Positions 41,901 through 63,487 of a stretch of 64,000 bases of DNA are shown here, in pieces. Within the stretch, counting starts at the first letter, position 1; each line of letters starts with the position of its first letter. Origin of the DNA: an uncultured delta proteobacterium (GTDB taxonomy: Bacteria; Desulfobacterota; Binatia; UBA9968); the NCBI GenBank assembly GCA_963816145.1, contig CAWFJP010000013.1, positions 64,001 to 128,000 on the forward strand. The letters run 5' to 3'. The position numbers were made by a program, and so were the translations under genes. The notes beneath the pieces are model-generated. The model was given only the letters and a program-made list of their open reading frames with translations. It was not told the DNA's origin and searched no databases.

Positions 41901-44900
41901 CCAGTGCTGTCGAGTCGGTAACGTCAGTGACGATTCCACTTTCCCTATCAGCCCCTTCTGGGCTGACCGTCACGGTCGATTACGCGGTTACCGGAGGCAC
42001 GGCCACTGGTGGCGGGGTGGATTACACGTTGGCCGCGGGCACGTTGACTTTTACGCCTGGGGTAACCACGCAGAATATTCCTATCACTGTGGTGAACGAC
42101 ACGCTGGACGAATCGGACGAGACCATTCAGATTACCTTGTCCAATCCAAGCAATGCGATTCTCGGTGCCAACGCCGTTCACACCTATACGATCCTCGATG
42201 ACGACGCGACGCCGACGGTGGCTTTTAGCACGGCCAGCTCCAGCGGTTTGGAATCGGTGACATCGGTGATGTTGCCGATTACTTTATCTGGAGCATCCGG
42301 CCAAACTGTGACGGTGGATTATGCCGTTACGGGTGGGACGGCGACGGGCGGTGGAGTCGACTACACCCTGGCCAGTGGCACGTCGACGTTCACGGCAGGA
42401 ACCACTAGTCAGAATATTTCTATTACAGTGGTGAATGATGCCCTTGATGAGGCGGACGAAACCATTCAAATCACACTGGCCAATCCTACCAATGCGACGT
42501 TAGGCGTTAGTACGCTTCACACCTACACGATCACCGATGATGATACGCCGCCGTTGCTAGCTTTTGGTTCTGCTAGTTCGAACGGCTTAGAATCGGTAGC
42601 TACAGTAACTATCCCGGTAACCCTCTCTCCTGCCTCAGGTCTGACGGTGACGGTGGATTACGCTGTGAGCGGTGGCACAGCCAGCGGCGGCGGTGTCGAT
42701 TATACGCTGGTCAATGGGACGCTGACGTTCACGGCTGGAGTCACGACGCAGAATATTTCACTCACCGTGGTCAATGACACACTCGCCGAAGCCAACGAAA
42801 CCATCCAGTTGTCGTTGTCGAACCCGACCAACGGGACACTCGGAGCAACAACCGTGCATACGTATACGATTACCGACGATGACATTGCGCCGGCGCTAAC
42901 GATCGGCGATGTGACGGTCACAGAAGGAAACTCCGGCACGGTCAACGCCGTATTTACCGTAACACTGTCGGCAGCTTCGGGGCAGACCGTGACGGTGGAT
43001 TATGTCACGGCCAGCAATACTGCCACTGGCGGCGCTAGCTGCGCTGCTGGGATCGATTATGTCAGCACCAGCGGCACGCTCACGTTCACCGCAGGGCAGA
43101 CTACCAGGACGGCGACCGTGGCGGTATGCGGTGACACACTCAGTGAAGCGAATGAGACTTTCTTGGTCGATCTCAGCAATGCCGTCAATGCCACGATATC
43201 AGATAGTCACGGGCAAGGTACCATTACAGACGACGATGCGGCACCTACGGTGAGCTTATTGTTAGCGGGAGCGTCCATGGCCGAAGCCGGAGGCCTCGCG
43301 ACAGTTACCGCAACTCTGTCCGCCGTTTCTGCGCAAACGGTCACTGTCGTGCTGAGTTTCTCCGGCACAGCAACCTCGAATGTCGATTACAGTCCGTCGG
43401 CGGCCTCAATTGTCATTGGGCCGGGTAGTTTGAGCGGTAGCGTGACACTGACGGCGATACAAGATGCGCTTGTCGAAGGCAATGAAACGATAATTGTTGG
43501 CATGGGTGTGGTGACCAACGCAACGCCCACGGGCACGCAACAGGTCATGGCAACTATTATCGACGACGATACCCCGCCGATCGCCCTCAATCTCAGCATC
43601 GACGATGCACCAGATCCGGTCCAGGCCGGTGGGCAAATCACCTACATGCTAACGTACAGCAACCCGACGAGCGCCAATCAGATCGGTCCGGGCGCAACTT
43701 TGATTAGTGTATTGCCGGCGAACACGACATTCGTGTCAGCCAGCAACGGCGGGACCTACGCCACCGGGGCGGTGACATGGAGCTTGGGCGATCTGTCGCC
43801 GGGATCGGGCGGAACGCGAACGCTAGTCGTGCAAGTGGTTGCGCCGTTGGCGAATGGAACGGTGTTAACACATCAGGCAACGCTGCAGGATACCTTGGGC
43901 GATAGCGCCACGGCGAATCAAACAACCACGGTGCAAAACGCGGCGGCGCTCGCATTATCCATAAGTGACAGTCCAGACCCCGTGCCGGCGGGCGGGCAAA
44001 TCACCTACACCTATACGTTCAGTAACTTGTCGTCAGGGAATCAAACTGCGGTTGGGACGGTGATCGTGGTGACCTTGCCGAACGAGACAACTTTTGTATC
44101 GGCAAGTAATGGCGGCACGTTGGCCGCAGGCGTAATAAGTTGGCCGATCGGCAATCTCGCCCCCGGAGCCAGCGGTAGCCGAACCCTGGTGGTATTGGTC
44201 AATTCACCTTTGGCTAACGGTACATTGATAACCGAGGATGCGGCGATTCAAGACGCCGCCCTAAATAGCGCCAATGCCAACCAGACGACGACTGTTCACA
44301 GCGCGCCGTTGCTGTCGCTGACAACCAGCGATAGTCCGGACCCAGTGCAAGCCGGCGGTCAGATCACTTACACACTGACGTTCAGGAATTCGAGCAATAC
44401 CAATCAGACTGCATCGGCTGTGACGCTGACGAATACACTGCCAAAAAACACGACGTTTGTCTCGGCCAGCGACGGCGGTTCGCTGGCGGGCAACGCGGTT
44501 ACTTGGACGATCGGCAGCCTCGCTGCCGGCGCGTCGGGCAGCAGAACATTGGTGGTCAAGGTGGCTTCGCCATTGCCGAACGGCACGTTGCTTAACAATC
44601 TGGCAACCATTTCCGATAGCGCTGGTGGTAGTGCCAACTCTCAGATCATCACGACGGTGGGTGAGACGGGAGGCGTTGGTGGAGGTGGTATCGCGTCGAC
44701 ACCCACGACCTCAAGCGTGCCCAGCGCGTCGAGCTTCGCAAGTAGTGCAGCACCTACGCCATCGATTGCGCTCGAACCCTTCAGCGAAGCGCCTCCAGCT
44801 GAGCCAATTTCCAGGCCAGCGCCGGCGGTGCAGAATCAAATAACGAGTTTGCCGACTCGTACCCCAGACGCCTGTACGTCTACATCACACTTATCACTGG

Positions 44901-47312: not shown

Positions 47313-48320
47313 TTACAAACCGAATATTTTCCGAAACTCCCGTGCGTGATCGTCCAGTCCTGAGTACACCTCTTTGGGTACCGCTTTCAACCTCAATTTG
47401 CTTTGATCCATTTTCGGGGCCAGCGGTTTGACGTCGCTGCGCGCCGGGATGCGGCGCATCTCGCGGATCATCTCCTGGCCTTTGCGCGAAGTCGCGAAGT
47501 TGATCAGCAGCTTGGCGGCATTGGGGCTGGTTGCCTTGGCGCTAAGCGCTATACCGCTGATGGTCACGACGATCGGATCGAAACTTTCGATCCAATCCAC
47601 TGGCGCGCCGTCACTCTTCATTCGTTCGATGCGGAAGTTATAGGCCCATGCCAATGGCACTTCGCCGGCGCCTACGAGTTGGGCGGTCAAGCCGTGGCCG
47701 CGGCGCCAGAGCGGATCTTGTTTTGCGAGCTGCTGCATGTACTTGACGGTTCTTTCCCGCCCCCACACCGTCATCAGCGTGCCGAACCAGTCATAGTCGG
47801 TGGAATCCATCAGCATCTGGCCTTTCCACTTGGGATGGAGCAAGTCGTCATAACTTTTCGGCGCCTCTTTGGCGGCGAGCATCTTGCTGTTATAGGCGAG
47901 CACCAGATTGTTGACGAAGACACCGGTCCAGTAACCCTGAGGATCTTTGAACTGATCAATAAATAGATCGCGATCCGGAGCGAGATAAGGCACGATCACC
48001 TTGCGCTCGATCATCGTCGCGATCGAGCTTGTCGATAGGACATCGAAAGCCCAGCGACCTGCGCGGATCTCGCTCAAGATGCGGTTTACCAATTGTTCCT
48101 CGCCCAATCGAACCAGTTCCGGTCTGATGAACGGGTACTCTTTAACAAAGGCATCGAGCAACGGCTTCGAAGTATCCACCGCCATCGAAGTGTACCAGGT
48201 GAGTTTGCCTTCTTTCTTGGCGCCGTCGACGAGGACGGCTTGGGATTGAGCAAGCAGCGGGGTGGCGAAGGAGAGAATAATCAGAACCAATGGAGCGAAG
48301 GAATGTAAAGTAAATTTCAT
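47313..48320 (-). CDS. Extracellular solute-binding protein, close paralog of 15132-16151
   Basis: Shared WYTSMA, MLMDSTDYDWFGTL, WRRGHGL, KMDQ..L, EFR.IFGL. Confidence 0.88.
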   Translation of the reverse strand: MKFTLHSFAPLVLIILSFATPLLAQSQAVLVDGAKKEGKLTWYTSMAVDTSKPLLDAFVKEYPFIRPELVRLGEEQLVNRILSEIRAGRWAFDVLSTSSIATMIERKVIVPYLAPDRDLFIDQFKDPQGYWTGVFVNNLVLAYNSKMLAAKEAPKSYDDLLHPKWKGQMLMDSTDYDWFGTLMTVWGRERTVKYMQQLAKQDPLWRRGHGLTAQLVGAGEVPLAWAYNFRIERMKSDGAPVDWIESFDPIVVTISGIALSAKATSPNAAKLLINFATSRKGQEMIREMRRIPARSDVKPLAPKMDQSKLRLKAVPKEVYSGLDDHAREFRKIFGL

Positions 48321-48343
48321 GCTACTCCTCAAAACTCCTACGC

Positions 48344-48425
48344 GGTCGAGGATGGAAGATGGAGGATCGAAAATGGCGAGGATCGAAGAGGGCGATTAGC
48401 CATCCTCGATCCTCCATCCTCGACC
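48344..48425. repeat. Inverted tandem heptamer (TCGAGGA/TGGAGGA) hairpin
   Basis: GG-TCGAGGA-TGGAAGA-TGGAGGA-TCGAAAA-TGG... / CCA-TCCTCGA-TCCTCCA-TCCTCGA-CC. Confidence 0.82.
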
Positions 48426-48435
48426 CGTTCGGTTC

Positions 48436-49557
48436 TCACGCCCTTGGATACAATGCATCGATCATCAAGCGCTTATGATGTCCCGGCGTGCCGAGATACT
48501 GATAGAGCGTGTGGGCGAGCACGCTGTGCGCCATCATCGGGTGGCTGTAGTCCGTGCCCGGTCCGGCCCAAACCATATGCGCATAATTGGTGCCGTGATA
48601 GTAGCCGTCACTGGCGGTGGCTTTGGCCTCATGCGCGCCGGCGCGGGCGTCCACGCCATTCTCGATGCGCCAGATCGCTTCGTAGGTCGCCCAGCGCGCC
48701 ATGTCCAGGCAGATTGAAATATCGACGCAGTGATCCTGCACCCGTTGGAAACGGCCGATCGGTTGGCCGAAGACGACGCGGGTGCGGGTGTATTCACAGG
48801 TGAGGTCGAAAACTTCCTGGGTCGCGCCGACTTGATAGGCCGCCAGAATCGGCAAGGTCTTCGTCAACGCGGCATCGAGGGTTGCCCAGCTCGCGCCGCT
48901 GGTGCCGATCAAGCTGTCGGTCGTGACCGCGACGTTGTCGAAGCCCACTTCGAAAGCCGAAATCAAAAAGCCGATCAACGGTGTCACCGTGACGCCCGGG
49001 CTCTTGGCGTCGACTAATAAGAAGACGACGTCGCCTTCCTCGCTGCGCGCTGCGCACAAGAAGTGGGTCGCAGCGTCGGCGTCGAAGACAAACCGCTTGT
49101 TGCCTTTTAAGAGATAACCGTTGGCCATTTTGACCAGCCGGGATTCCACCGATTCCGGTCCCCAGTAGGCGGCTTTGTCGGTGATCGCCGGCACGACGAT
49201 CGAGGTGCCTTTGCACAGCGGCGGCAGCAACGCCTTGCGCTGCGCATCGGTTCCCGCGTCAAAAATCATCTGGGCGCTTAATATGCCGGACGTAAACAGC
49301 GGACCTGGCACAGGGCCGTGGCCGAGCGCTTCGAATACCACCGCGCAGTCCATTGTCGACAATCCAGCGCCGCCGAATTCCTCCGGCAACATCATGCCCA
49401 GCCAACCGAGCTCGGCGGCTTTCTTGATGATCTCCGGTCTAAAGATCTTCTTGTTTAGAAACCATTGGGTCATTTGATGCGCCGGCACTTCCGCCTTGAC
49501 GAAATCCGCCGCAACCTTTTTCAACATTTCTTGGTCTTCAGTAAGTCCTAAATCCAT
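48436..49557 (-). CDS. Acyl-CoA dehydrogenase, probable beta (non-catalytic) subunit
   Basis: LTEDQEML, ELGWLG..LPEEFGG, G.KRFV, R.VFGQPIGRFQ. Confidence 0.85.
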   Translation of the reverse strand: MDLGLTEDQEMLKKVAADFVKAEVPAHQMTQWFLNKKIFRPEIIKKAAELGWLGMMLPEEFGGAGLSTMDCAVVFEALGHGPVPGPLFTSGILSAQMIFDAGTDAQRKALLPPLCKGTSIVVPAITDKAAYWGPESVESRLVKMANGYLLKGNKRFVFDADAATHFLCAARSEEGDVVFLLVDAKSPGVTVTPLIGFLISAFEVGFDNVAVTTDSLIGTSGASWATLDAALTKTLPILAAYQVGATQEVFDLTCEYTRTRVVFGQPIGRFQRVQDHCVDISICLDMARWATYEAIWRIENGVDARAGAHEAKATASDGYYHGTNYAHMVWAGPGTDYSHPMMAHSVLAHTLYQYLGTPGHHKRLMIDALYPRA

Positions 49558-49572
49558 TTCGATTCTCCTACG

Positions 49573-49656
49573 ATTGGAACCATTGGAACCTTATGGAACC
49601 ACTGGAACGAAAGCAGACGATGTTCCAATCGTTCCAACGGTTCCAGAGGTTCCAAT
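49573..49656. repeat. Inverted tandem 9-mer (ATTGGAACC) hairpin
   Basis: ATTGGAACC ATTGGAACC TTATGGAACC ACTGGAACG / GTTCCAATC GTTCCAACG GTTCCAGAG GTTCCAAT. Confidence 0.85.
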
Positions 49657-49678
49657 TGTTGCCTGTTGCCTCATGCCA

Positions 49679-50893
49679 TTAATCGGTCTCCGGCGCTTTC
49701 TCGGTGGTCGGCCGGCCGAGGCCGAGACGACGGGCGAAGATCAACCGGTCGGTGTCCAGGGTGCCGCCGCCGTGCAGCTGGCCGGGGCCGGTGCGGACGG
49801 CATACTCGAAGTCGATAACTTCGTGCACCGACAGATTTTGCACCAGGGCGTCGGCGCCCATGATCGCCTGCAAGCGCTCGCCGTTGCGCAGGCGCAGCAT
49901 GCGCTGGTAGTAGCGCTGCTGCGGGCCGCCGTAGGGATGGGGCTTCTTGGCGAAGCGGCGCCAGTAAATCAACTGATTGAAGCGCCGCAGGGTGTTCAAC
50001 TCGATGGTCATCTCGGCGATCAGATCGCGCACGCGCGGATCTTCGATGATCGGCTTGCCGTCGACATGGGTGTTGCGGCAGTAGTCGACCACGCGCTCGA
50101 TCAGCGGGTCGGCGGCGATGCGGCCGTCGCCGCCATGTTCGAGCTCCATGTGCGTGCTGGCGACTTTCCAGCCGTTGTTCTCGCCGCCGATCAGATATTT
50201 CGCCGGCACGCGGACGTTATCGAAGAACACCGCGTTCTTGATGCCCATCATCAAGTTCATATGCTGAATCGTGATGCCGGGGAGATTGGCCGGGATATGC
50301 AGCCAGGCGAGGTTCTCGTGCCGCTTGCCCTGCGGGTTGGTGCACACCAGCGTCCAAAGAAAGTCCGGCGGCAAATGATGGCCGACCATGACCTTCTGGC
50401 CGTTGACGACATAATGATCGCCGTCGCGGATCGCTTTGGTCTGACAGTTGGCGATGTCGCTGCCGCCATGCGGTTCGGTGAGCACCTGCCAGACGCAGAT
50501 TTGCGCCCGGGTGATCGCCGGCAGAAATTCCGCCTTCTGTTCTTCGGTGCCCCAGCGGATCAACACCGGCGCGACGATGCGCGCCAAGGTGTAGAACGTG
50601 TGCGAGAGATTGAGGCCGTATTTAAACAGCTCGGTTTCGAGCACCATCTGGTGGTCGACCGTGAGCTCGGCGCCGCCATATTGTTTGGGATAGAGCGGGA
50701 ACAGCCAGCCCTTGGCGCCGAGTTTTTCGGCCAAGCCGCGGCGAAACTTGTACTCGTCGGCATCTTCGCGAGTCGACCAGGAAGCCGACCAGCGCAAGTG
50801 CTCGTTGCCTTTGAATTGCTCGGCGAGCCAAGCGCCGACCTCGTTGCGAAATTCCACGACATGGGGCGGATCTGCACTGACATTAAAATCCAT
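49679..50893 (-). CDS. Acyl-CoA dehydrogenase, probable alpha subunit (FadE26/29-like)
   Basis: FR.EV..WL, GT.EQK..FLP, TEP.GGSD, NGQK, VFFDNVRVP, GGEN.GW, GGT. Confidence 0.88.
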   Translation of the reverse strand: MDFNVSADPPHVVEFRNEVGAWLAEQFKGNEHLRWSASWSTREDADEYKFRRGLAEKLGAKGWLFPLYPKQYGGAELTVDHQMVLETELFKYGLNLSHTFYTLARIVAPVLIRWGTEEQKAEFLPAITRAQICVWQVLTEPHGGSDIANCQTKAIRDGDHYVVNGQKVMVGHHLPPDFLWTLVCTNPQGKRHENLAWLHIPANLPGITIQHMNLMMGIKNAVFFDNVRVPAKYLIGGENNGWKVASTHMELEHGGDGRIAADPLIERVVDYCRNTHVDGKPIIEDPRVRDLIAEMTIELNTLRRFNQLIYWRRFAKKPHPYGGPQQRYYQRMLRLRNGERLQAIMGADALVQNLSVHEVIDFEYAVRTGPGQLHGGGTLDTDRLIFARRLGLGRPTTEKAPETD

Positions 50894-50918
50894 GGTTCAC
50901 TCCTTTTCAGTCGTTCAC

Positions 50919-50976
50919 AGTTTCGGGTTCCAAGTTTCGAGTTGAGGCGGGGAACGCGAAACCCGTAACTCGAACC
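50919..50976. repeat. Inverted tandem heptamer (AGTTTCG) hairpin
   Basis: AGTTTCG GGTTCCA AGTTTCG AGTT / AACGCGA AACCCGT AACTCGA ACC. Confidence 0.75.
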
Positions 50977-50979
50977 AGT

Positions 50980-52161
50980 CTATATCACTCCACTTGCTGT
51001 CAATTCCTTCACAGCATCGCTGTCATAACCCAACTTCGCCAACACTTCCGCAGTATTCTCGCCGAGCAGCGGCGCGGCGCGAAAGAACTTCGGCGGCGTG
51101 CCCGACATGTTGATCGGACTGCCGACCAGATTGCTTACGCCCATCTGCGGATGTTCGATTTGTTTGGGGATGCCCAGGTGCTTGATCTGCGGGTTGTCGA
51201 ACACTTCATGAATCGTGTTGATCGGCGCGTTGGGGATGCTGTGGGCGTCGAGGCGCGCCAGCCAGTAATCGCGCGGCTTCTTGGCGAAGGCCTGGCGCAG
51301 CATCTTGACGATCTCGTCATGGCGATCGCTACGCTGCTTGCGCGTCGCGAAGCGCGGGTCACCGACCCGCTCTTCGAGTTCGCCGGCTTTGAGCAAACCT
51401 TCCCATGCCTGATTGTGGCCGGACAGATGGACCATGAAGGGTTTCTTGTCGCAATCGAGCAGGCTGTAAATTCTTCCCTTGGGGAAATTCTCCCGCGACA
51501 CCGCTTCGCCGCCGTTCAAATAATCCGAAACATGGGACTCGATGAAGGCAATGGCGACCTGCAACAGCGAGACATCGATAAACTGGCCAACACCGGTTTT
51601 GGCCCGTGCCAAGAGCGCCGCCATGATGCCGTGGGCGGCGAAAATCCCTGCGGTGTGGTCGACGAAAGAGATGCCGGCGACCTTGGGGTCGTCGAGTTCG
51701 GTAACCAGGCTCATCATGCCGCTCAACGCTTGGCCGATGGTGTCAAAGCCAGGTTTATCGCGGTAGGGTCCGCTCTGGCCATAGCCGGAGATCGAGCAAT
51801 GGATCAGTTTGGGATTCAACTTCGCCAGCTCGTTGTATTCGAGGCCTAATTGCTGGCGCGTCGGCGGCCGGAAGTTTTCCAGAAAGATATCCGCCGTGGC
51901 GATGAGCTTGCGCAGAATCTCCCGGGCCTTTGTCTCGCGCAGGTTGAGCGTGACGCTTTTCTTGTTTCTATTAAGCGCGCGGAAGCTCGGGCCGTAGCCC
52001 TCGTATTTGGGATTGCGCCCGCGGTGGGTGTCGCCGCCGTTGGGCAATTCGACTTTAATCACTTCGCAGCCCAAGTCGCCGAGCAAGCTGCCGGCGTAGG
52101 GCCCGGCCACATGGCCGCTGACATCGATGCAAGTGAAACCTTCGAGAGCGCCGGAGATCAT
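50980..52161 (-). CDS. Family III CoA-transferase (CaiB/BaiF)
   Basis: AGPY...LGDLG.EVIKVE, NRNKKS, ENFRP, SISGYGQ.GPY, catalytic Asp in FVD. Confidence 0.92.
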   Translation of the reverse strand: MISGALEGFTCIDVSGHVAGPYAGSLLGDLGCEVIKVELPNGGDTHRGRNPKYEGYGPSFRALNRNKKSVTLNLRETKAREILRKLIATADIFLENFRPPTRQQLGLEYNELAKLNPKLIHCSISGYGQSGPYRDKPGFDTIGQALSGMMSLVTELDDPKVAGISFVDHTAGIFAAHGIMAALLARAKTGVGQFIDVSLLQVAIAFIESHVSDYLNGGEAVSRENFPKGRIYSLLDCDKKPFMVHLSGHNQAWEGLLKAGELEERVGDPRFATRKQRSDRHDEIVKMLRQAFAKKPRDYWLARLDAHSIPNAPINTIHEVFDNPQIKHLGIPKQIEHPQMGVSNLVGSPINMSGTPPKFFRAAPLLGENTAEVLAKLGYDSDAVKELTASGVI

Positions 52162-52199
52162 TTATTATTCGCCAATTCCTAATCTAGAAGTTCTTTCCC

Positions 52200-52295
52200 T
52201 CGTCATGCCCGCGAACGCGGGAGTCCAGGCTCTGTTTTCGGCGTGGCAACGGCGAGCTGCGAGCGTAGAGAAACCTGACCGACCGGAAATGACGA
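52200..52295. repeat. REP-like palindromic element
   Basis: TCGTCAT-GCCCGCGAACGCGGGAGTCCAG ... ATGACGA; internal CCCGCG-AA-CGCGGG hairpin. Confidence 0.6.
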
Positions 52296-52519
52296 ACGGA
52301 TACCCTTTCACTTATCGCAATCAAAAACGGTTTTCCACCAGGCGGCGCGGGCGAGGTTGAAAACCTTCAAGCCGTTCAAGTCAGCCCAAACGCGACGGAT
52401 CGGTTTCGAAGGAGTACGGGTTGAGAACTTGGCTTGACTGATCGCCGTGAGCAGAGTTATAGCTGCCAAGTTCGTCGCGCGCGCGACGACAATATTATAA
52501 ACTTCGGAGGAATAGACCG

Positions 52520-52927
52520 ATGAACTGGCAAGAAGCACTCCCGCTGTTACAGAATAATCACACTGGTGTCGCGGCTACGGTCACGGCTAAGGGCCGTGCG
52601 CAGGCAACTATCGTATCGACGGCTGTGTTGGACGACAAAGTCGGCGTCGCGGCGCGGCCGCGCACCGTGAAAGAGAGAAACATTGCACGGACGGGCCGAG
52701 CGGCTATCACGGTCATCAAGCTCGACAACCGGCGCTATGTCACCGTCGAAGGCCCGGCGTCCATCGAGCCCTGGCAGGACACGCCGGCGCATATCAAGCG
52801 CTTGAAGGACTTTTACGTTTCGATGGGACGAGCCAAGGGGACTGATGAGGAATTTGCCAAACAGATGCGCGAGGAACAGCGCACCCTGATTCTTGTTACC
52901 CCCGAGCACCTCTATGGCAGCGTTTAA
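52520..52927 (+). CDS. PPOX-class (putative F420-dependent) split-barrel protein
   Basis: ATV...GR.Q, K.RNI.R, YVTVEG, M..EQR; RBS GGAGG. Confidence 0.8.
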   Translation: MNWQEALPLLQNNHTGVAATVTAKGRAQATIVSTAVLDDKVGVAARPRTVKERNIARTGRAAITVIKLDNRRYVTVEGPASIEPWQDTPAHIKRLKDFYVSMGRAKGTDEEFAKQMREEQRTLILVTPEHLYGSV

Positions 52928-52997
52928 GCAAGAGCCCTAACGCATTTCCGTTTCGTCCGCCGAAGGGTTTGGGTGATTGGGTATTTGACTCAAACCG

Positions 52998-53080
52998 CCG
53001 CGCCAGCAACGCTGCTGATCGCAGAGGATGTCATCGCAGGAGGCAATTCTTTAGCGAAGATCACGGCGGTTGCAGCGCGG
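52998..53080 (+). other. Long imperfect RNA hairpin upstream of the AhpD-like gene
   Basis: Nested pairings CCGCGC/GCGCGG, GCAAC/GTTGC, GCTG/CGGC, TGATC/GATCA and AGAGGAT/ATTCTTT, with several G-U pairs that form only on the + strand. Confidence 0.45.
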
Positions 53081-53115
53081 TACTTGCAGCATCGGTGGAA
53101 ACAAAGGGACAGCTT

Positions 53116-53706
53116 ATGGCCAGGATCAAAGGTGTAACCGAATCTAATGCCAATGATGACGTGCGGCAGATTATCGCCGAGCAGAAGAAACGTCATGGTT
53201 TTGTCTCAAACGCGGCGCAGGTGTCCGCCATAAGGCCGACCATTCAGCAGGGAGTTCAGGCGCTTGCCAAGGGAATTCAGGATTCAGGACTGATCGCGCA
53301 GGAACTGCGCAATTTGGTCTGCGTCAGGACCGCGCATATCAATGGTTGTCCGTATTGAATTGACAGTAATGCATCCGGGGCGATGCAAAACGGCGCAGCC
53401 GCGGAAAAGGTCGAAGCGGCTTTGGGCGATTACAAGAGGAATCCGTTGTTTTCCTTGCGCGAGCGGCTGGCGCTGGAGTTGGCGGAACGGATGACCTACA
53501 CCAGCAAGCGGGTCTCGGATAGGTTCTTCAAGCGGCTCAAAAAACATTTTAGCGACGAGGAGCTGGTCGAATTAGCCGCGGTGATCGCACTGGAGAACTT
53601 TCGCAGCAAGTTCAACCCGGTTTTTGCCATCGAGGCGAATCATTTTTGCTCTTTGCCGGGAATCATAGAAGCTGCTGCCGCCGCCACGCGGCGCTTCCAT
53701 GAGTAA
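53116..53706 (+). CDS. AhpD/carboxymuconolactone decarboxylase-like protein with CxxU; probable selenoprotein
   Basis: ...HINGCPY-TGA(53356-53358)-IDSNASGAMQNG... continues in frame into ORF 53383-53706 (FS.RERLALELAE.MT, HFSDEELVEL, NF.SKFN). Confidence 0.82.
53370..53387 (+). promoter_or_regulatory. Candidate bacterial SECIS element
   Basis: TGCATC-CGGGGC-GATGCA stem-loop starting 11 nt after the in-frame TGA. Confidence 0.65.
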
Positions 53707-53780
53707 CCCGACGTGCCCGGGCGGTAGGCGGCTGGCCAAGACTGAATGGCCAAGCCGACCTGCCGTCCGCGCCACCTGCG

Positions 53781-54899
53781 TTAGTCCCTCAATAGGAACT
53801 CACCGGAAAATTTCACTTGCTCGTTCTCCGGCAACGGGTGATAGCGTGCCGCCTGAATGTCGCGGAACAGCCGCTCGAGGCCGAAGCTACGATAAAAACC
53901 GGCACCGCCGGCGATTTCCATCGCTTTGGTGACGACAGCGATGGCGGCGTTGGCGACATTGGTTTTCCGGGTCAGAATATCCTGACCGTTTTGATCCACG
54001 GCTTCGAATTCGTAATTCTCCGCGATGCGCAGCATGTCGTTCAACTGAACCTGGGCGGCGACCAAATCGTTGTGCAAAGTGCCGATCAAACCCGCCATTT
54101 GCGGCTTGGCGCTTTTTTGCCGTCGAATATGGCCGATCGCCAATTGCGCCGCTTTCTCGGCAATGCCCACATAGACCGACATGATCAGCGGCATCGCCAC
54201 GGTCAGGACGACATTCCAAACCGGATGATAGGTGCCGCGCGGCCGCTTGAGCGCGATGGCTGCGTCGGGCACGAAGACATTTTCCAGTTTAACGGTATGG
54301 GAGCCCGTGCCTCTCATGCCGAGGGCGCGCCAGTTGTTCAGTACCGTGACACCTTTGGCGTTCATCGGCACCGGGAAATGCAGCACCTCCCAGCCCCGTT
54401 CAGGGTCCATGTATGGCGCGCTGGTGATCAGCATGTCGCCTACCGCGGACTGACTGGCAAAATGTTTCTGCGCGCTGACCAGATAACCGCCGTCGGTTTT
54501 GCTCACCGTGCCGTTGGACTCGAGCCAATCGCCGGCGCCGGTGCTGACCAGCACGAGCTGTTTGTCGGCGACGTTCTTGAGCAGCGGCTCGCCGCCCTGG
54601 CCGCGCCGCCACTTCCAAATTGTCGCGGCGATCAGGTGCTGATGCATCGACAGCGCCAGTGCCGTCGAGCCGCAGTATTGGGCGAGGGTGCGCAGCATGT
54701 CGGCGATCTGGCGATGGGAAGCGCCGCCGCCGCCCAGTTCAGCCGGGATCGCCGCGCCGAACACGCGTGCTGCTTTGAGCGCGCCGTAGTTGTCGCTGAC
54801 AAAGCTGTCGCTCTCATCGCTCAGTTCTGCCCGGCCGGCGAATTCCTTGCCGAGACTATGGGCCACCTCGGTCCATTGAATTGGGTTTAACTGATTCAT
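53781..54899 (-). CDS. Acyl-CoA dehydrogenase / flavin monooxygenase family protein
   Basis: P.ELGGGG, STALALSMH, K.FAS, W..LGMRGTGSH, LERLFRD. Confidence 0.88.
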   Translation of the reverse strand: MNQLNPIQWTEVAHSLGKEFAGRAELSDESDSFVSDNYGALKAARVFGAAIPAELGGGGASHRQIADMLRTLAQYCGSTALALSMHQHLIAATIWKWRRGQGGEPLLKNVADKQLVLVSTGAGDWLESNGTVSKTDGGYLVSAQKHFASQSAVGDMLITSAPYMDPERGWEVLHFPVPMNAKGVTVLNNWRALGMRGTGSHTVKLENVFVPDAAIALKRPRGTYHPVWNVVLTVAMPLIMSVYVGIAEKAAQLAIGHIRRQKSAKPQMAGLIGTLHNDLVAAQVQLNDMLRIAENYEFEAVDQNGQDILTRKTNVANAAIAVVTKAMEIAGGAGFYRSFGLERLFRDIQAARYHPLPENEQVKFSGEFLLRD

Positions 54900-55000
54900 A
54901 ATCGACCTCCTCAAAAATTATTCTGCCGCTGAATATAATCTCCGGCGCCGATCGGTGCTTTGTTGAAAAGGCCGGAAGTTTGACTGAGCGGCTCTTTGAA

Positions 55001-55888
55001 TTATAAAGCGACCCGGCCGGGGCTTTCCTTGCGGTAATGCGCCGGGGGCACGCCGAATTTGTCCTTGAATGCCCGGCTGAAGTGGGAGAGGTCTTCGAAG
55101 CCGCAGTCTAGAGCGACTTGGGACACATTAAGCGCGGGATTTTTCAGCAGCACAGCGGAGTAGTCCAGCCGTTTGTGCAATAGCCACCTGCCGGGCGATT
55201 GCTTGTAGTACTTCTGAAAGTCGCGTTTGAAGGTCGACAGACTGCGATGGGTTAACTTCGCGAAATCTTCGAGACCGAGGTTGTAACAAAAATTTGCCTC
55301 CATGATTTGCGACAGTGGCGGCGCAGCGCTTTTCAGCAGCGATTGAAAATAGGCCGCGAGCTCGGGATTGTTGCGCCCCAGCAATATGCTGACGATCAAT
55401 TCTTTGAGTTTGAGCGTCAGCAAGCTGTCCGCCGGCTTGGCCGTTCCGGTGAAATAGGCCAGCATCGATTGAAAATAAGCGGCCAAGGTCATGTCGCCGT
55501 TGACCAGAATCGCGCCTTGATGGAGCGGGTCGCCGTCGTGCTGGCTGCTCAGCTGGCCGGAAACTTCCTTGACCACTTCGCGGGTAAAATCATCGGAAAC
55601 GAAGAACACCAAAAGACAAAAATCTTCCCTGAAATCCTGGTGCACGATGGCGGCGCCCTTCTTGAAAAATAGCGTCTGGCCTTTTTCCAAGGTCCACGAT
55701 CCTTCGGTCGTGCGCCAGGTTTTTTTGCCGCTGACCACATGAACGAAATAATCGATCGGTGTCCATGCGCCGGCGACATCTTGCTCGATGGGGCATTTGT
55801 ACTCGACGAAAAGCAGCTCCCCAACCGAGAATTTATTGAAATGCAGATTGTCGCGAATGGTCTCGTACATATTCATCATGGGGATCAT
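55001..55888 (-). CDS. AraC-family transcriptional regulator
   Basis: RSLSTFKRDF, W....RL, VA.DCGFEDLSHFSRAFK.KFGV.P. Confidence 0.93.
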   Translation of the reverse strand: MIPMMNMYETIRDNLHFNKFSVGELLFVEYKCPIEQDVAGAWTPIDYFVHVVSGKKTWRTTEGSWTLEKGQTLFFKKGAAIVHQDFREDFCLLVFFVSDDFTREVVKEVSGQLSSQHDGDPLHQGAILVNGDMTLAAYFQSMLAYFTGTAKPADSLLTLKLKELIVSILLGRNNPELAAYFQSLLKSAAPPLSQIMEANFCYNLGLEDFAKLTHRSLSTFKRDFQKYYKQSPGRWLLHKRLDYSAVLLKNPALNVSQVALDCGFEDLSHFSRAFKDKFGVPPAHYRKESPGRVAL

Positions 55889-56136
55889 CGGCGCTAGCCT
55901 CCTGCGGATATTTACGCGTTACCTGGGAAACTCACCACTCAATTATTTTGCTCTTTTGCCGGGGGCTTTCAAGTATCGGAGATATCGATGAGCGGGCACA
56001 AGCCGATCAGGTTGACAGGATCGCGGGTTAGCGCTTACTGTCGGCAAAAGTGACGACGGTGCGGCGCAGGTTTCGCATTCGACGGTGCGCGCCCGCGCGG
56101 CGCTAAATTCAACTCGACCAAACCGGAGGTATTCCC

Positions 56137-56766
56137 ATGATGACGCTTTTTTTCAGTCCTGGTGCTTGCTCTTTGGCTTCGCATATCGGTCTCGAAGAAA
56201 CCGGCGCGCCCTATGAGCTCAAACCGATCTTGCTGACCAAGGGGCAGCAGCGCACCGCGGATTATCTGAAGATCAACCCGCGCGGTAAAGTGCCGGCGCT
56301 CAGCGTCGACGGCAAGATCCTGGTCGAGAACACCGGCATACTCACATACCTGGCGCGGAGGTTCCCGGACAAAAAGCTGCTGCCGGCCGATCCTGCCGAG
56401 GAAGGGCGCTGTGTCGGTACCATGTGCTGGTTCTCCAGTGTCGTCCATCCGTCGTACCAGCGCTTCCATCGCCCCGAGCGTTTCGCCGACAGCGAAGTGG
56501 CGCACGCCGCGGTCAAGGAAAACGGCAAGAAGTCGTTTTGGGCCAATCTCCAGGAGATCGACTCGATGATCCAGGCGAACGGCTGGGTCATGGGCAAAGA
56601 TTTCACGGTCGTCGACGGCTACGCGCTGGTCTTCTACGGCTGGGCGAGCCGCAGCGGCATGCCGGTGACAGAGCTCAAATCGTACACGGCCTGGCGCGAG
56701 CGCATGATGCAACGACCGACAGTCAAGAAGAGTGTCGAGAGTGAGGAAAGCGTTTCGACGTCATAG
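56137..56766 (+). CDS. Glutathione S-transferase (beta-class-like)
   Basis: SPGACSLASHI.LEE, YLKINPRGKVPAL, G..FT.VD. Confidence 0.92.
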   Translation: MMTLFFSPGACSLASHIGLEETGAPYELKPILLTKGQQRTADYLKINPRGKVPALSVDGKILVENTGILTYLARRFPDKKLLPADPAEEGRCVGTMCWFSSVVHPSYQRFHRPERFADSEVAHAAVKENGKKSFWANLQEIDSMIQANGWVMGKDFTVVDGYALVFYGWASRSGMPVTELKSYTAWRERMMQRPTVKKSVESEESVSTS

Positions 56767-56898
56767 TTGGGTAGCGTTTTCTCCACCTCGACGTCCGTTA
56801 AGAAATTGGCCGGGATTGCCAGATCGTCGAATTGCTTGAGTCTGACGCAGTTTGCCGGCGCAGGTTCGACGGCGATAGGCCCAAACGGAGGAAGCAAA

Positions 56899-57969
56899 AT
56901 GGCTCGGCGCAGCTGGCCGGTTTTATTCGCGGCGGTGATCGCTTCGGGTTTGTTTTTAGCAAGCCGGCCGGTGTTCGCCCAGGAGCCATTTTACAAAGGC
57001 AAGACCGTTCGCTTGCTGGTTAATTATCCTGCCGGAGGAGCCACCGATGTGGTCGCCAGGCTGGTCTCGAGATATTTGGGCAAGCATCTCGCCGGCAATC
57101 CTACGGTCGCGGTTCAGAACATGCCCGGCGGCGGGGGCAATGTCGGCGCCAACTATGTGTACGAGGTCGCCAGTGCCGACGGCTTGACCGTCGGAGTTTT
57201 CTCCGGCGGCTATTTGCCGCAGATCCTCGGCGGCGCCGGCGTGCGCTTTGATCTCAACAAAATGCCGATGATCGCGGGGGTCGGCGAGACCTCGGTGGTG
57301 TACATTCGCGCCGATACCGGGGTCAAAGGCCCCGGTGAAATTCTCAAACCGGCCAAGCCGATCGTCATCGGCGGATTCACCCGCGAGAGCAACAAAGATC
57401 TGGCGTTGCGGATGGCGCTCGATCTTCTCGGCGTGCCTTACCGTTACGTGACCGGCTACGCCGGCGAAGCCGACCTCCGGCTGGCCGTCCAGCGGGGCGA
57501 AATCAATTACACTTCCGAGGGTCTTACCGGCTATACCATGGGCGGCGCCTTGATGGCGCGAGAAGGTGTCGTGGTGCCGATCTATCAAGACGGTTTGACC
57601 GGACCCGATGGAGAGATCGTTCGCGATCTACGCGCCGACCTGCCGACGTTCAAGGAATTCTTTCGAGCGGCGAAGAAAGCCGATTTCTCTGGGCCTTTGG
57701 CCGACGCCTTCAAGATTTCCGGAGCGGTACGTAGTCTCGGCAGGTTTGTCGTCGCGCCACCGAAGACGCCGGCGACGGCAATCGAGACGCTGCATAAAGG
57801 TTTTCGCGAGACCTTTGACGATCCGGAATTCAAGGCGGAGGCGGAACGCGTGTTGCGATTCCAATTGGTGAGTTTTGTCGGCGAGGACGCGGCCAAGGTT
57901 AACACTGCGGTGTTTCGCGCCGCTACCGGACCGGTGCGGGAAGCCCTGCGAAAGATGACTCAGGAGTAA
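56899..57969 (+). CDS. TctC/Bug substrate-binding protein
   Basis: RBS GGAGG, signal peptide MARRSW; FYKGKTV, PAGGATD, QNMPGGGG. Confidence 0.88.
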   Translation: MARRSWPVLFAAVIASGLFLASRPVFAQEPFYKGKTVRLLVNYPAGGATDVVARLVSRYLGKHLAGNPTVAVQNMPGGGGNVGANYVYEVASADGLTVGVFSGGYLPQILGGAGVRFDLNKMPMIAGVGETSVVYIRADTGVKGPGEILKPAKPIVIGGFTRESNKDLALRMALDLLGVPYRYVTGYAGEADLRLAVQRGEINYTSEGLTGYTMGGALMAREGVVVPIYQDGLTGPDGEIVRDLRADLPTFKEFFRAAKKADFSGPLADAFKISGAVRSLGRFVVAPPKTPATAIETLHKGFRETFDDPEFKAEAERVLRFQLVSFVGEDAAKVNTAVFRAATGPVREALRKMTQE

Positions 57970-58171
57970 GCAGCGCACGAAAGTATCTTATCTCGGAATG
58001 TTGACGCCGGTTGAGAGATTGACTCGACGATCCAACGCGCCGGCTGGGTCATGGGTCAAGAGTTCAAATTTTGGCTCCATGATCTACCGGGCTCGATTTA
58101 TAGCGGTTCATCGGCAGGATCACGGCAAAAGACTTGCCGCAGGCAGGAAGTCTCATATCTCGGAGGTGCAT

Positions 58172-59272
58172 ATGAAACGCGACAAGCCCAAATGGCGGGT
58201 GTTTCGGCAAATATCTCTTCGCTCCGCATTTGGCGCGCCACTGCTCGGTCTTTGCTTTGATCTCTTCATGGCCGGCATTGCTTTTCCGCAAGCTTCTTTC
58301 TTCCAGGGGAAAACCGTTACCATCCTTGAGAGTAGCGCGCCAGGGGGAGTCGGCAGCATGCGGACCAAAGCCGTTGTGCCTTTTCTCCAGAAGTATATTC
58401 CGGGAAATCCCACCATTGTGATGCAGCACATGGACGGCGGCGGCGGACGCAAGGCGGCCAATCACATTTATCAATCGGTCCGTCCGGACGGCCTGACCAT
58501 TGGCCGTATGTCGACGCCATTCGTGATGCATCCCATTCTCGGAGAGAGTGGAATTCTCTATGACATCGATAAAGTGAGCTATCTGGGCACCAGCTATAGC
58601 GGCGGCTACCATGTTTTTTTCACGCGCCGGGAATCGGGCCTCGACAGTCTAGAGAAGCTTCGCGCGGCTTCAGGTTTGAGAATCGGTTCCCAGTCGGTCG
58701 GGCACCTGATCTACATCTCCGGTCGAATGTTTGCGTATCTGATCGGCCTAAAACAACCGAGATTCGTCACCGGGTACAACTCACCCGAACTCGATGTCGC
58801 CATCGAGCAGGGCGAGATCGACACTAGGTCAACCGTGGCAGACGCACTCCTGCACGAGAAACCTCAATGGGTCGACAAAGCACAGATGGACTTCCACAGT
58901 ATCATCGAGGTTCCGAAAGGGCGGAAACACAGCCACCCGCACTTTGCCAGACTCCCTGACATCGAGAGCTTTGCGAGTTCGGCCATGGACCGGAAACTCA
59001 TCGGGCTGTACCGGGCGTTCATCGGCAGCGGCAACCCGCTAATCCTGCCTCCCGGCACCCCGAAAGACCGAGTCCGCATCCTGCAGGAAGCGATGCGCAA
59101 GACTTATCGAGACCCCGAGTTTGGCAAGGAGTATGCAAAGCTCACCGGCCTAAAGGCTGAACCGCAAATGCCGGAGGAACTGGAGCAAACGATCAGAGAT
59201 ATGCCGCGCGACCGGGAAGCCGTAGAGCTGTTCAAAAAACTCACCGGCCCGGACCCGCTACCGCAGAGGTAA
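58172..59272 (+). CDS. TctC/Bug substrate-binding protein
   Basis: RBS GGAGG; FFQGKTV, YIPGNP, RPDGLTIG, PPGTPKDRV. Confidence 0.86.
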   Translation: MKRDKPKWRVFRQISLRSAFGAPLLGLCFDLFMAGIAFPQASFFQGKTVTILESSAPGGVGSMRTKAVVPFLQKYIPGNPTIVMQHMDGGGGRKAANHIYQSVRPDGLTIGRMSTPFVMHPILGESGILYDIDKVSYLGTSYSGGYHVFFTRRESGLDSLEKLRAASGLRIGSQSVGHLIYISGRMFAYLIGLKQPRFVTGYNSPELDVAIEQGEIDTRSTVADALLHEKPQWVDKAQMDFHSIIEVPKGRKHSHPHFARLPDIESFASSAMDRKLIGLYRAFIGSGNPLILPPGTPKDRVRILQEAMRKTYRDPEFGKEYAKLTGLKAEPQMPEELEQTIRDMPRDREAVELFKKLTGPDPLPQR

Positions 59273-59385
59273 AGAGCCGATAACTTTCACCCGGTGGTGT
59301 ATTCAGTCATGCGGAAGAAACCCAAAGCGCGCGAAGAAACGATTTGTTTTCTGCGGCCATCAGCGCGCGACGAGGAGGAACAAAT

Positions 59386-59943
59386 ATGACCGCCGAACCC
59401 GAAGGCCCTCGCGTAGGGACCATAGGCCCGGAGTTTCACATCGCCACGGCTGCTGGCTGGCTGCCGCTGCGTCAGTTGGCCGCGCAATATAAGAAACTGG
59501 TTCTCACGACCCAAGATAGTTACCGATATCATCCAAACTGAGCCGCCAGCATGGCTGCTTCGTTGAAGCAGGATTATGCAAAAATTCTCAAGGCGGGAGC
59601 GGACCTCGTCATGATCTCGCCCGATTCTCTTGACGAGCATCGTCAATATGGGCTGACACTCTTCGGCGAGGAACTCCCCTATCTGTTTGTTTCCGACAGC
59701 GACCTCGACATAGCGCGGCGCTACGGCCTGCTCCGTGGCGAAGAGCATCACCACGGCGGTTTTTATTATCGCTCGCTCTGGGTACTGGATCGTGACGCTG
59801 TTATTGCGCACAAGAGCGTTCCCTGGGACGGCAACGCGCAGGTTGAAGAGTACCTGAAATTATTCACACTCATTGGCAGCGAACCGGGAGAATGGCGAGC
59901 CACCTGTGGCTTGAGACAGCCAGGAAATTTGCCTGCGAGTTGA
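59386..59943 (+). CDS. Peroxiredoxin/AhpC-TSA-like protein with in-frame TGA at the peroxidatic position; probable selenoprotein
   Basis: RBS GAGGAGG; VG..GPEF...LVL...HPN-TGA(59539-59541)-AASMAA continues in frame to GADLVMISPDS, LPY..VSD.D..IARRYG, RSLWVLD. Confidence 0.78.
59549..59579 (+). promoter_or_regulatory. Candidate bacterial SECIS element
   Basis: CTGCTTC-GTT-GAAGCAG stem-loop (59555-59571) 13 nt after the TGA, with a lower GCAT/ATGC stem. Confidence 0.6.
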
Positions 59944-60008
59944 AATCGAGGGGACAAGGCAATCCCGCCTTACACGTTTGAGGGCGTGTGCGTAGCCGGG
60001 CAAATACC

Positions 60009-60683
60009 ATGTGGACATATATCGGCCAGAAGCGGCCGCCTTTCGCCATAACACCGGGGCTCGGACAGGAGTCGGTGTGGGATTATCCGCGGCCGCCAAA
60101 ACTGATTGCTGAGCAGCGGCGCATTGTCGTTCGGCGCGGCGATCTGCTGATCGCCGACTCGCGTGAAAGTTATCGCATTCTGGAGACCGCGGCGCCGCCG
60201 ACTTTTTACATTCCACCGCGCGATGTCCATGTCGAACTGCTGCAGCCGTTTCCCGGCACGTCGATTTGCGAATGGAAAGGCGCGGCGCAGTACTGGACAT
60301 TGGCAATGGCGACATCGGCGCGGGAAGCGATCGGCTGGAGTTATCCGCAGGCGCAAGCGCCGTACGGCGCGATTGCAGATTTCTTTTCCTTCTATCCCGG
60401 CCGTGTCGAGTGTTTCGTCGACGGCGAGCGCGTGCGCCCGCAGCCGGGTTATTTCTACGGCGGTTGGATAACTGATGAAATTGTCGGGCCTTGGAAGGGG
60501 GAGCCGGGGACGGTTTGGCAAAGAAGTGCCGCATGGCGGGACAACGTCCCGTGGTTACTCGTTGGAGCGGCTGCTTGTTATCTTGTCAGGCTTACTTGCG
60601 GCAATCGCCTTGAGCACCTCTTCGGCCACTACCCGGTGACCCGCTTCGTTGTAATGGCCGAAAACACCAAAAGGAAACAGTGA
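60009..60683 (+). CDS. DUF427 family protein, copy 1 (native stop lost, aberrant C-terminal extension; possibly a pseudogene)
   Basis: QESVWDYPRPP, LET...P.FYIP, CEWKG.A.YW, FYGGWIT; near-identical to 62972-63476 up to 60513. Confidence 0.7.
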   Translation: MWTYIGQKRPPFAITPGLGQESVWDYPRPPKLIAEQRRIVVRRGDLLIADSRESYRILETAAPPTFYIPPRDVHVELLQPFPGTSICEWKGAAQYWTLAMATSAREAIGWSYPQAQAPYGAIADFFSFYPGRVECFVDGERVRPQPGYFYGGWITDEIVGPWKGEPGTVWQRSAAWRDNVPWLLVGAAACYLVRLTCGNRLEHLFGHYPVTRFVVMAENTKRKQ

Positions 60684-62102: not shown

Positions 62103-62971
62103 GAAGTTTAATTTATGTTTGATATTACTGACGTTCTAACCGCCTATGCGAGGGATTACATTCCATTTTGTAAGCGATCGCTTACGGGAAAGATAATGCT
62201 CAATCAAATGCAAACCTGAAACTTTCACACTAATGAAATTGCGGCTCGGCTAAAGAATCTTTTTACGGATCTAATGCGCCTGTGCTTTAACTTCCGCAGC
62301 GTCATCGAAGCGCGATCTCCGAAGCTATCAGAACGGCGATTTAACCTTTTTGGAATTGAGCCGAGCGACTGAACAAAAGCTGACAAAATCACTCCTCATT
62401 CGACGTAGCAGTCAGTTGTATCGTAAGATTCATATCATAAAATACCGTGCTGTTAAAAAGCTATCTGAAAACACAAACTGCTCGATAGTATAAATCGTCA
62501 CGTGAGGATAAATCTGGTCGGTCCGATGAGCGACTTTGTCAAGCAGCCCGCTTTCGGCTTAATGCTGACCAATGACTCCAACGTTGAAAATCTGTCTGTA
62601 TCGGCTGATATTGCAGTGCCGTCCACTTAGACTTCGGAGCTGATGCCACGCTAGTAATTTTCCAGACAGCTCGCGCTACATTTGTTGTAACGGCCTTACC
62701 TGATCTGCATACCGGCATGCTCAGGTCGGACACGAGAAATGACTTCATGATCGAGGGGTCGCGCCTGAGTATCGACTTGAACCGTCCGCCGAATCAGAAA
62801 AGTGTACAAAGAGAACAGAGCGTTTCAGCGTAATCTGAATATCGCAATTTCATGCCGCCGACGGGAGTTTAAAACATTTTGCTTGCATCGTCGTCGCCGA
62901 ATCGCCGAAGCGAAGATGCGTTCGGATTTGGCTTCCGAGGGCGTGTGAGCTAACCGCCCTAGCAATAAAAC

Positions 62972-63487
62972 ATGTGGGTTTATACCGGCCAGAAGCGGCC
63001 GCCTTTCGCCATAACACCGAGGCTCGGACAGGAGTCGGTGTGGGATTATCCGCGGCCGCCAAAACTGATTGCTGAGCAGCGGCGCATTGTCGTTCGGCGC
63101 GGCGATCTGCTGATCGCCGACTCGCGTGAAAGTTATCGCATTCTGGAGACCGCGGCGCCGCCGACTTTTTACATTCCACCGCGCGATGTCCATGTCGAAC
63201 TGCTGCAGCCGTTTCCTGGCACGTCGATTTGCGAATGGAAAGGCGCGGCGAAGTATTGGACATTGGCAATGCCGATATCGGGGCGGCAAGCGATCGGCTG
63301 GAGTTATCCGAAAGCGCGGCCGCCATACGGCGCGATTGCAGATTTCTTTTCCTTCTATCCCGGTCGCGTCGAGTGTTTCGTCGACGGCGAGCGGGTGCGC
63401 CCGCAACCGGGTTATTTCTACGGCGGTTGGATAACTGATGAAATTGTCGGGCCTTGGAAGGGGGAGCCGGGGACGGAAGGGTGGTAG
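62972..63487 (+). CDS. DUF427 family protein, copy 2 (intact)
   Basis: Same motifs as copy 1; ends GP.KGEPGTEGW-stop. Confidence 0.85.
   Translation: MWVYTGQKRPPFAITPRLGQESVWDYPRPPKLIAEQRRIVVRRGDLLIADSRESYRILETAAPPTFYIPPRDVHVELLQPFPGTSICEWKGAAKYWTLAMPISGRQAIGWSYPKARPPYGAIADFFSFYPGRVECFVDGERVRPQPGYFYGGWITDEIVGPWKGEPGTEGW

Follow-up and report, generated by a model that had tools for sequence, protein, structure and literature searches.

The stretch of DNA analysed here, referred to below as the window (64,000 nucleotides, positions 64,001 to 128,000 of contig CAWFJP010000013.1 in assembly GCA_963816145.1, from an uncultured delta proteobacterium of the Binatia), very probably carries a genuine selenoprotein gene at 59386-59943, in which an in-frame TGA stands at codon 52, at the position of the peroxidatic cysteine (Cys) of peroxiredoxins. 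The fuller reading, namely that of a 185-residue, single-domain selenoprotein of the peroxiredoxin fold, in which this codon is decoded as selenocysteine (Sec, U; Sec52) and serves peroxidase chemistry, is the one that we favour, with moderate confidence. When TGA is read as U, a single open frame of 185 residues runs from 59386 to 59940; under translation table 11, the frame opened at 59386 closes at the TGA of codon 52. An earlier note, made from the letters of this DNA, had pointed to a strong ribosome-binding site, to a TGA at the peroxidatic Cys followed by in-frame continuation up to a conserved Arg, to a 7-bp hairpin with a G-starting loop 13 nt downstream, and to the motifs QDSYRYHPNU, EEHHHGG and YRSLW with a single C-terminal Cys; all of these features were indeed recovered by the present analysis (Table 1 and below).

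The behaviour of codon 52 among related genomes provides the first line of evidence. In the 12 DNA copies compared, i.e., the window and 11 genome loci (L001-L011), TGA occupies the same column throughout, is never replaced by TAA or TAG, and is embedded in conserved flanks (LT[TS]QDSYR[YF]HPN before, AA[SG][MV]AASL[KR] after). A purine-rich GGAG-type stretch with an ATG at -51 codons was found in nine of the 12 copies, the start of L001 lying at -53. The N-terminal part was located directly upstream and in frame at 11/11 genome loci; the two halves, whose separate occurrence in other genomes had been named as a refuting observation, are thus not found apart. The ratio of nonsynonymous to synonymous substitution rates (dN/dS), determined over 36 pairs of nine intact copies (L006, L010 and L011 being left out for their disrupted frames), was 0.153 for the 43 codons upstream of the TGA and 0.102 for codons +11 to +120. 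When the upstream stretch was shifted by one base, the ratio was 1.15 (three stop-free pairs), and the remaining frame was closed. The synonymous rate (dS) was about 1.3-1.5 in these flanking parts (1.27 and 1.46), which indicates that the copies are well diverged, and yet the "stop" persists. Just after the TGA, dS was 0.39, and the mean third-position entropy over codons +1 to +10 was 0.258, as opposed to 0.893 for the remaining 106 informative codons. Of 107 sliding windows in the gene, this stretch is the one with the least synonymous variation, a level as low as that of 1 of 100000 random draws, and the collapse in synonymous change coincides with the position of the hairpin described below. 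As regards the three copies with disrupted frames, all on contigs of MFD-labelled metagenome-assembled genomes (MAGs), L006 has an upstream stop (around 5990-6050), while L010 and L011 have frameshifts (after 6220 and after 6330, respectively); these disruptions may stem from indels in the assembly or from genuine decay.

Of the ten copies with an intact frame 3' of the Sec codon, eight also use TGA as the terminator of the gene (L004 has TAG and L009 TAA), and two UGAs, one decoded and one terminating, would thus sit on a single mRNA. A global reassignment of TGA was considered and ruled out, given this use of TGA as a terminator and the neighbouring genes, which close normally under table 11. 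Promoter and terminator scans gave matches at chance level only.

The second line of evidence comes from homologs, in which Cys takes the place of the TGA. An exhaustive search returned 61 matches among cluster representatives, the best of which (P0122, 216 residues, uninterrupted) is 50% identical to the read-through protein over residues 8-180 (E 2.4e-47). This Cys form possesses a DSYRFHRSC motif, a Cys near its C-terminus and, ahead of the Arg, DEHDHGG, and these shared oddities indicate that the unusual features belong to the family and not to the use of Sec. In line with the check proposed in the earlier note, Cys lay under U52 in 13/13 uninterrupted homologs examined, namely the 11/11 full-length, TGA-free rows of alignment A3 together with P0146 and P0153. 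More distant matches, of about 150 residues and 23-33% identical, were ordinary TPxC peroxiredoxins, and the nearest uninterrupted environmental relatives (P0145-P0175) were of the BCP type, also with TPxC. Nine further representative matches, of 51-78 residues, covered residues 1-52 only, and both of those that were fetched end in ...HPN, which indicates that gene callers stop at the TGA. In a separate entry, P0144 (90 residues), the N-terminal part runs to ...YRYHPD and is followed at once by a C-terminal ...HKMLPWKGN, about 85 residues including the Sec column being missing; P0144 may be a variant with a deletion, or else an assembly chimera.

The fold of the read-through protein is that of peroxiredoxins. 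The Pfam AhpC-TSA family (PF00578) matched residues 24-142 (E 4.1e-10; 40.1 bits, the cut-off being 26), an alignment which crosses the TGA, and the Redoxin Pfam family matched as well. In phmmer alignments against solved structures (5xbs/5ovq), U52 fell on the peroxidatic Cys in peroxiredoxins of the Aeropyrum pernix type and of Aquifex (HPNU versus TPVC), and R129 on the catalytic Arg (YRSLW aligned with VRGVF); at least 90% of A3 rows retain this Arg. The profile built from A3 placed BCP/PrxQ-type and AhpE-type chains closest among solved structures, with 5enu on top at E 1.4e-30. An AlphaFold2 model, calculated from a 32-row alignment, reached a mean predicted local distance difference test (pLDDT) score of 87.7 and a predicted template modelling (pTM) score of 0.85. 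Its helix 50-69 places residue 52 in the first turn, as expected for a peroxidatic residue. The best Foldseek matches of this model were peroxiredoxins, with template modelling (TM) scores of 0.60-0.71; 3a5w_A came first (E 3.5e-12, TM 0.69), and the BCP-type 5enu and 3drn were also present.

The active site departs from the canonical PxxxTxxC. His49 (59530-59532) stands in place of the conserved Thr, and Asp44/Ser45, with a small insertion, stand in place of the Pro, as seen in the phmmer alignment. The Pro and the Thr/Ser of PxxxTxxC are absent from 12/12 copies and from the Cys form P0122, and the motif is identical in 12/12 copies except for Y/F at residue 48. The EHxHGG insert corresponds to a gap of 3-4 residues in ordinary peroxiredoxins, according to the alignments, and H121, H123, G124, G125 and R129 are invariant among the 27 sequences of alignment A1. 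Cys174, in the conserved EPGEWRATCG tail, is likewise invariant in these 27 sequences and is present in P0122, P0127 and P0130; it would be the only candidate for resolving a selenenic acid.

The third line of evidence is a hairpin that may act as a bacterial selenocysteine insertion sequence (bSECIS). It consists of a 6-bp lower stem, which starts 7 nt past the TGA, a 2-nt bulge, and a 7-bp upper stem closed by a GUU loop (CUGCUUC-GUU-GAAGCAG, 59555-59571), which begins 13 nt after the TGA. Its minimum free energy (MFE) is -12.4 kcal/mol in the window and ranges from -8.7 to -14.5 over the 12 copies, in which pairing is kept in 94.9% of cells and six pairs never vary. The bSECIS model given in a figure legend of a 2026 review (PMC13188914, Fig. 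2 legend) comprises a loop of 3-9 nt with a G in its first two positions, an upper stem of 4-16 bp, a distance of 16-37 nt from the UGA and an MFE at or below -7.5. The hairpin is in line with all of these constraints, with its 3-nt loop opening with G and then U, its 7-bp upper stem, its UGA-to-loop distance of 20 nt and its MFE.

Several observations weigh against the reading proposed here, and they concern the hairpin, the copies compared, the Sec machinery and the active site. The stability of the hairpin is ordinary (81-nt fold, z = -0.90; 38/200 shuffles fold at least as well), and its covariation is no higher than in controls, with both sides altered in one of 13 pairs and the observed value reached by 258/500 shuffles. 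Covariation is uninformative here because the stem hardly varies. The RNAalifold consensus differs from the proposed hairpin and pairs the UGA itself; this alternative fold was not adopted, its covariation term being negligible (+0.09). No Rfam SECIS family was found in the window between 50000 and 64000, where four chance-level matches only were returned at E up to 10. The 12 copies probably represent one lineage, with shared flanking genes 73-95% identical, and are not independent witnesses. A single close Cys form (P0122) was found, and a search seeded with it returned itself alone. Cys174 is missing in L009, and the pLDDT of the model is only 58 for residues 171-180. Two of the four canonical active-site residues of peroxiredoxins (Pro and Thr) are absent, and peroxidase activity can therefore only be presumed. 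Finally, no selA, selB, selD or tRNA-Sec was found within the window or the 11 loci.

As regards the decoding capacity of the source organism, a second candidate selenoprotein gene, of the CMD/AhpD type (AhpD/YciW-type), is present about 6 kb from the first, in agreement with the earlier mention of two candidates within 7 kb. Its in-frame TGA lies in a C-P-Y-U motif, at the second position of the CxxC of the CMD/AhpD-type domain, and is followed, starting 12 nt after it, by a 5-bp stem with a G-rich loop (CGGGGC). The read-through product of this second gene gave an end-to-end match to the NCBIfam model NF053654 ("YciW-related (seleno)protein"), with E 5.7e-46 and a score of 156.5 bits, which falls short of the cut-off (310). 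No counterpart of the gene was found at the 11 loci. As judged from sequence, it suggests that Sec decoding takes place in the source organism. A crude scan of the window and loci for further in-frame TGA genes, with Cys, Ser or Thr close to this codon, gave 133 candidates; beyond the two genes reported here, nearly all looked like out-of-frame noise.

From a mechanistic point of view, we infer Sec insertion, a peroxide substrate, a reductant and the roles of His49, His121, His123 and Cys174 as follows. The UGA of codon 52 would be read as Sec during translation, the hairpin recruiting SelB with Sec-tRNA(Sec), whereas the second UGA (59941), which has no such hairpin, would terminate. In the folded protein, Sec52 is predicted to lie in the first turn of helix 2 beside Arg129, with the His-x-His loop (H121, H123) inserted just before this Arg. 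The Sec52 selenolate may then attack a hydroperoxide or a related oxidant and be converted to a selenenic acid, His49 acting as a proton relay in the role played by Thr in ordinary peroxiredoxins. Such a substitution is chemically reasonable, in view of the proton-accepting residue being Thr in peroxiredoxins and His in OxyR and GAPDH, as reported in the accessible part of a density functional theory study (PMC7231847). Cys174 may form a selenenylsulfide with Sec52, which a thioredoxin- or glutaredoxin-type reductant would resolve.

The most serious alternative, which we regard as possible although unlikely, is that of a selenoprotein without peroxidase function, in which Sec52, together with His49, His121 and His123, would reduce a disulfide, a sulfoxide or an organo-metalloid, or would bind a metal. 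The missing Pro and Thr of PxxxTxxC and the invariant EHxHGG insert, which adjoins the Arg, are in line with such a function, as are the scores obtained against curated peroxiredoxin equivalogs, all far below their cut-offs (26.5 versus 261 bits for NF009669; 14.7 versus 270 bits for PrxU). Several published Prx-like selenoprotein families are indeed thought to be thiol:disulfide oxidoreductases, according to the accessible part of PMC13188914, and the neighbouring genes vary between loci, none of them being a thioredoxin, a thioredoxin reductase or AhpF. However, Sec occupies the peroxidatic position and not the first position of a CxxC-type motif, with no Cys at +3 or -3. The conservation of the catalytic Arg in A3 and the nature of the nearest Cys relatives, which are ordinary TPxC peroxiredoxins of the BCP type, also favour peroxidase chemistry. 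A further, rather doubtful proposal is that the clade is almost always Sec-dependent (hundreds of Sec forms, versus one Cys form found) and has rebuilt its catalytic centre. The Sec-His pair U52/H49 and the His-x-His loop would then replace Pro and Thr, giving either a proton relay of the OxyR/GAPDH type on a peroxiredoxin scaffold, or a non-peroxide or metal-dependent chemistry new for the fold.

Passage through the UGA without Sec, by near-cognate insertion of Trp or Cys or by leaky termination, would yield a full-length, selenium-free protein. The absence of Sec machinery from the window and loci and a hairpin that is not statistically exceptional are compatible with it, but we consider it very improbable. 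Cys in 13/13 uninterrupted homologs is indeed what Sec/Cys pairs look like, the hairpin is conserved and agrees with the SelB-type model, and constraint at the nucleotide level begins just after the UGA. Moreover, the second TGA gene of the window matches a family named as (seleno)protein by NCBIfam, and the terminal TGA of the peroxiredoxin-like gene itself serves as a stop. Least probable of all is a true stop at codon 52, leaving a 51-residue peptide and a 130-residue redoxin truncated to start at Met56, or else a decaying pseudogene: an ATG (GTG in L008) does occur four codons past the TGA in 12/12 copies, the best 120 of 371 database matches start at Met56 (partly an artefact, since gene callers need a start codon), frameshifts affect L010 and L011 and the N-terminus of L006 is disrupted, but neither the reactive residue nor the fold's first three strands would be present in the 130-residue product, no Shine-Dalgarno sequence precedes Met56, whose AUG lies inside the hairpin stem, the 43 upstream codons show the low dN/dS given above while the other frames are closed or unconstrained, the codon is always TGA, and the Cys form P0122 is one uninterrupted protein.

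The selenoprotein reading of the gene may be compared with the peroxiredoxin-type systems already described. PrxU (NCBIfam NF040737; Peroxiredoxin, PF00578, TxxU) has in common with the candidate the AhpC/TSA fold, a peroxidatic Sec, the Arg and a SECIS hairpin after the UGA. The candidate nevertheless aligned with this model over residues 51-142 only, at the score given above; it has HxxU instead of TxxU, no Pro at -7, a loop insertion of about three residues before His49, and the EHxHGG insert ahead of the Arg. Among solved sequences, the closest are those of the BCP/PrxQ and AhpE types (5enu, 2ywn, 2cx3, 3drn and 1xvw; E 1.4e-30 to 1.6e-23), which have the same fold and fall in the same size class (a core of 150-165 residues), but use Cys and keep Thr where the candidate has Sec and His49. 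Many BCP/PrxQ members also possess a resolving Cys at +5 and a TPxC motif, as opposed to Ala57 at +5 and HPNU in the candidate, the family of which adds the C-terminal EPGEWRATCG tail.

Among known selenoproteins, the Prx-like UxxC/UxxU oxidoreductases ("Prx-like 1-3" from the GOS (Global Ocean Sampling) and Sargasso studies) share a PF00578/PF08534-type fold with Sec, and are often mis-annotated, as stated in the accessible parts of three sources (PMC13188914, PMC2398784, PMC1088965). In these families, Sec comes first in a thioredoxin-like UxxC; in the candidate, it is at the second, peroxidatic position, and residue +3 is Ser (Gly in L002), neither Cys nor Sec. Prx-SUH (NF045827, CxxU) is an AhpC/TSA-type selenoprotein too, but the candidate gave no match to it at E up to 1 and has His, not Cys, at -3. 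A family listed as "UxxS, cd02970" in the accessible part of the PMC13188914 table may include the candidate, which agrees with it in its motif letters, reading U-A-A-S in 11/12 copies and U-A-A-G in L002.

The earlier note had also suggested a possibly undescribed subfamily of Sec peroxiredoxins, which we find plausible. In support of this, no NCBIfam model was matched at its cut-off, the best being NF009669 as mentioned above. In the accessible parts of the three sources just cited, TxxU peroxiredoxins and Prx-like families of the UxxC, UxxU, UGC, UxxS and CxxU types are described. The family table of PMC13188914, as far as it was accessible, includes no peroxiredoxin-type family with His at -3 to Sec, its one HxxU entry being a sulfide:quinone reductase. 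Literature searches gave no description of the HPNU motif or of the family, although supplements (BSepDB Table S2, GOS Dataset S1) might list it. The claim of novelty is tempered by the "UxxS, cd02970" family and its shared U-A-A-S letters. Since Sec peroxiredoxins are already known, the HxxU form would constitute a variant with an unusual active site.

Database records of this family appear to be split at the TGA. A search with the read-through protein returned 371 clusters at E up to 0.001 (470 candidates), the best 120 of which were all 125-139 residues long, with 65-70% query cover, and were named peroxiredoxin or AhpC where named. The 26 cluster sequences that were aligned all begin at Met56, and the ten clusters looked up contained 23 members of 128-135 residues, annotated as "peroxiredoxin" or "redoxin domain protein" where named. 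Entries of 102-326 residues sought with residues 1-55 were not found, within the word-sharing limits of that search, which suggests, within the same limits, that there is no correctly annotated full-length entry. Taken together, the sequences point to a widespread selenoprotein gene that is split in each annotation examined (the best 120 of the 371 clusters, and the 23 members of ten clusters). The family is thus common in public data, as judged from this one search, and recorded there as a 130-residue "peroxiredoxin" without its reactive residue. Such records imply that peroxiredoxins and selenoproteins are miscounted in the lineages concerned, which are of soil and sediment (MAGs with the labels Binatia and "delta proteobacterium"). 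The family also offers a natural experiment, in which a peroxiredoxin scaffold carries His in place of a Thr held to be essential and uses Sec near-exclusively; a comparison of the Sec52 and Cys52 forms, and of the His49 and Thr49 forms, would bear on how peroxidatic chalcogens are activated.

Table 1. Coordinates of the selenoprotein candidate, its signals and related features (positions in the window unless a locus is named).
Feature	Position	Strand	Remarks
Full coding sequence, selenoprotein candidate	59386-59943	+	185 codons including Sec52, then terminal TGA stop at 59941-59943
Shine-Dalgarno-like GAGGAGG	59372-59378	+	7 nt 5' of the ATG at 59386
Active-site loop DSYRYHPNU	59515-59541	+	phmmer alignment to 5xbs/5ovq
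In-frame TGA, codon 52, peroxidatic position	59539-59541	+	TGA in 12/12 copies, Cys in uninterrupted homologs
Candidate bacterial SECIS hairpin	59549-59579	+	Lower stem 59549-59554/59574-59579, upper stem 59555-59561/59565-59571, loop GUU 59562-59564
Table-11 open reading frame (ORF), 130 residues, from Met56 (ATG 59551)	59551-59943	+	Form annotated in databases as the whole protein
Insert EEHHHGG (residues 119-125, 59740-59760), then FYY and Arg129 (59770-59772)	59740-59772	+	Insert family-specific
Cys174, sole Cys, candidate resolving residue, in conserved EPGEWRATCG tail	59905-59907	+	Alignment A1
Second candidate selenoprotein, CMD/AhpD-type (AhpD/YciW-type)	53116-53706	+	In-frame TGA 53356-53358, about 6 kb away
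202-residue ORF directly upstream of the selenoprotein gene	L002 5252-5857, L003 2802-3407, L006 5295-5900, L010 5250-5855		83-87% identical among the four

No redox partner is conserved in the gene neighbourhoods of the window and the 11 loci. The order AraC-GST-TctC-TctC-gene-DUF427 is common to the window and L001, and the 202-residue ORF, present in four of the 11 loci and absent from the window, gave sub-threshold cupin/JmjC matches only and no Pfam family. The MAGs that contain these loci bear the labels Binatia, "delta proteobacterium", Syntrophobacter sp. and Chloroflexota, while their flanking CoA-transferase, PNPOx, acyl-CoA dehydrogenase, AraC, GST and TctC-like genes are 73-95% identical to those of the window. 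A single lineage that has been labelled unevenly seems a likelier explanation than widespread transfer.

Downstream of the selenoprotein gene, two DUF427 (PF04248) genes, at 59988-60683 and 62972-63487, have their 5' parts covered by a direct repeat of at least 300 nt (60008-60307 and 62971-63270), whose copies are 97% identical and lie 2963 nt from each other. Between the two genes, on the minus strand, is a 515-residue ORF that matches GDSL lipases weakly. Further upstream, a giant ORF of 3220 residues (35984-45646, plus strand), in which 18 Calx-beta stretches occur together with DUF11 repeats and a bacterial TSP3 repeat, probably encodes a large surface or adhesion protein. The parts of the window at 1-35500 and 47313-59272 are unusually dense in genes for periplasmic solute-binding proteins, with at least 12 of them (TctC-like, NMT1/THI5-like and SBP_bac), intermixed with genes for CoA-transferases, acyl-CoA dehydrogenases and amidohydrolases.

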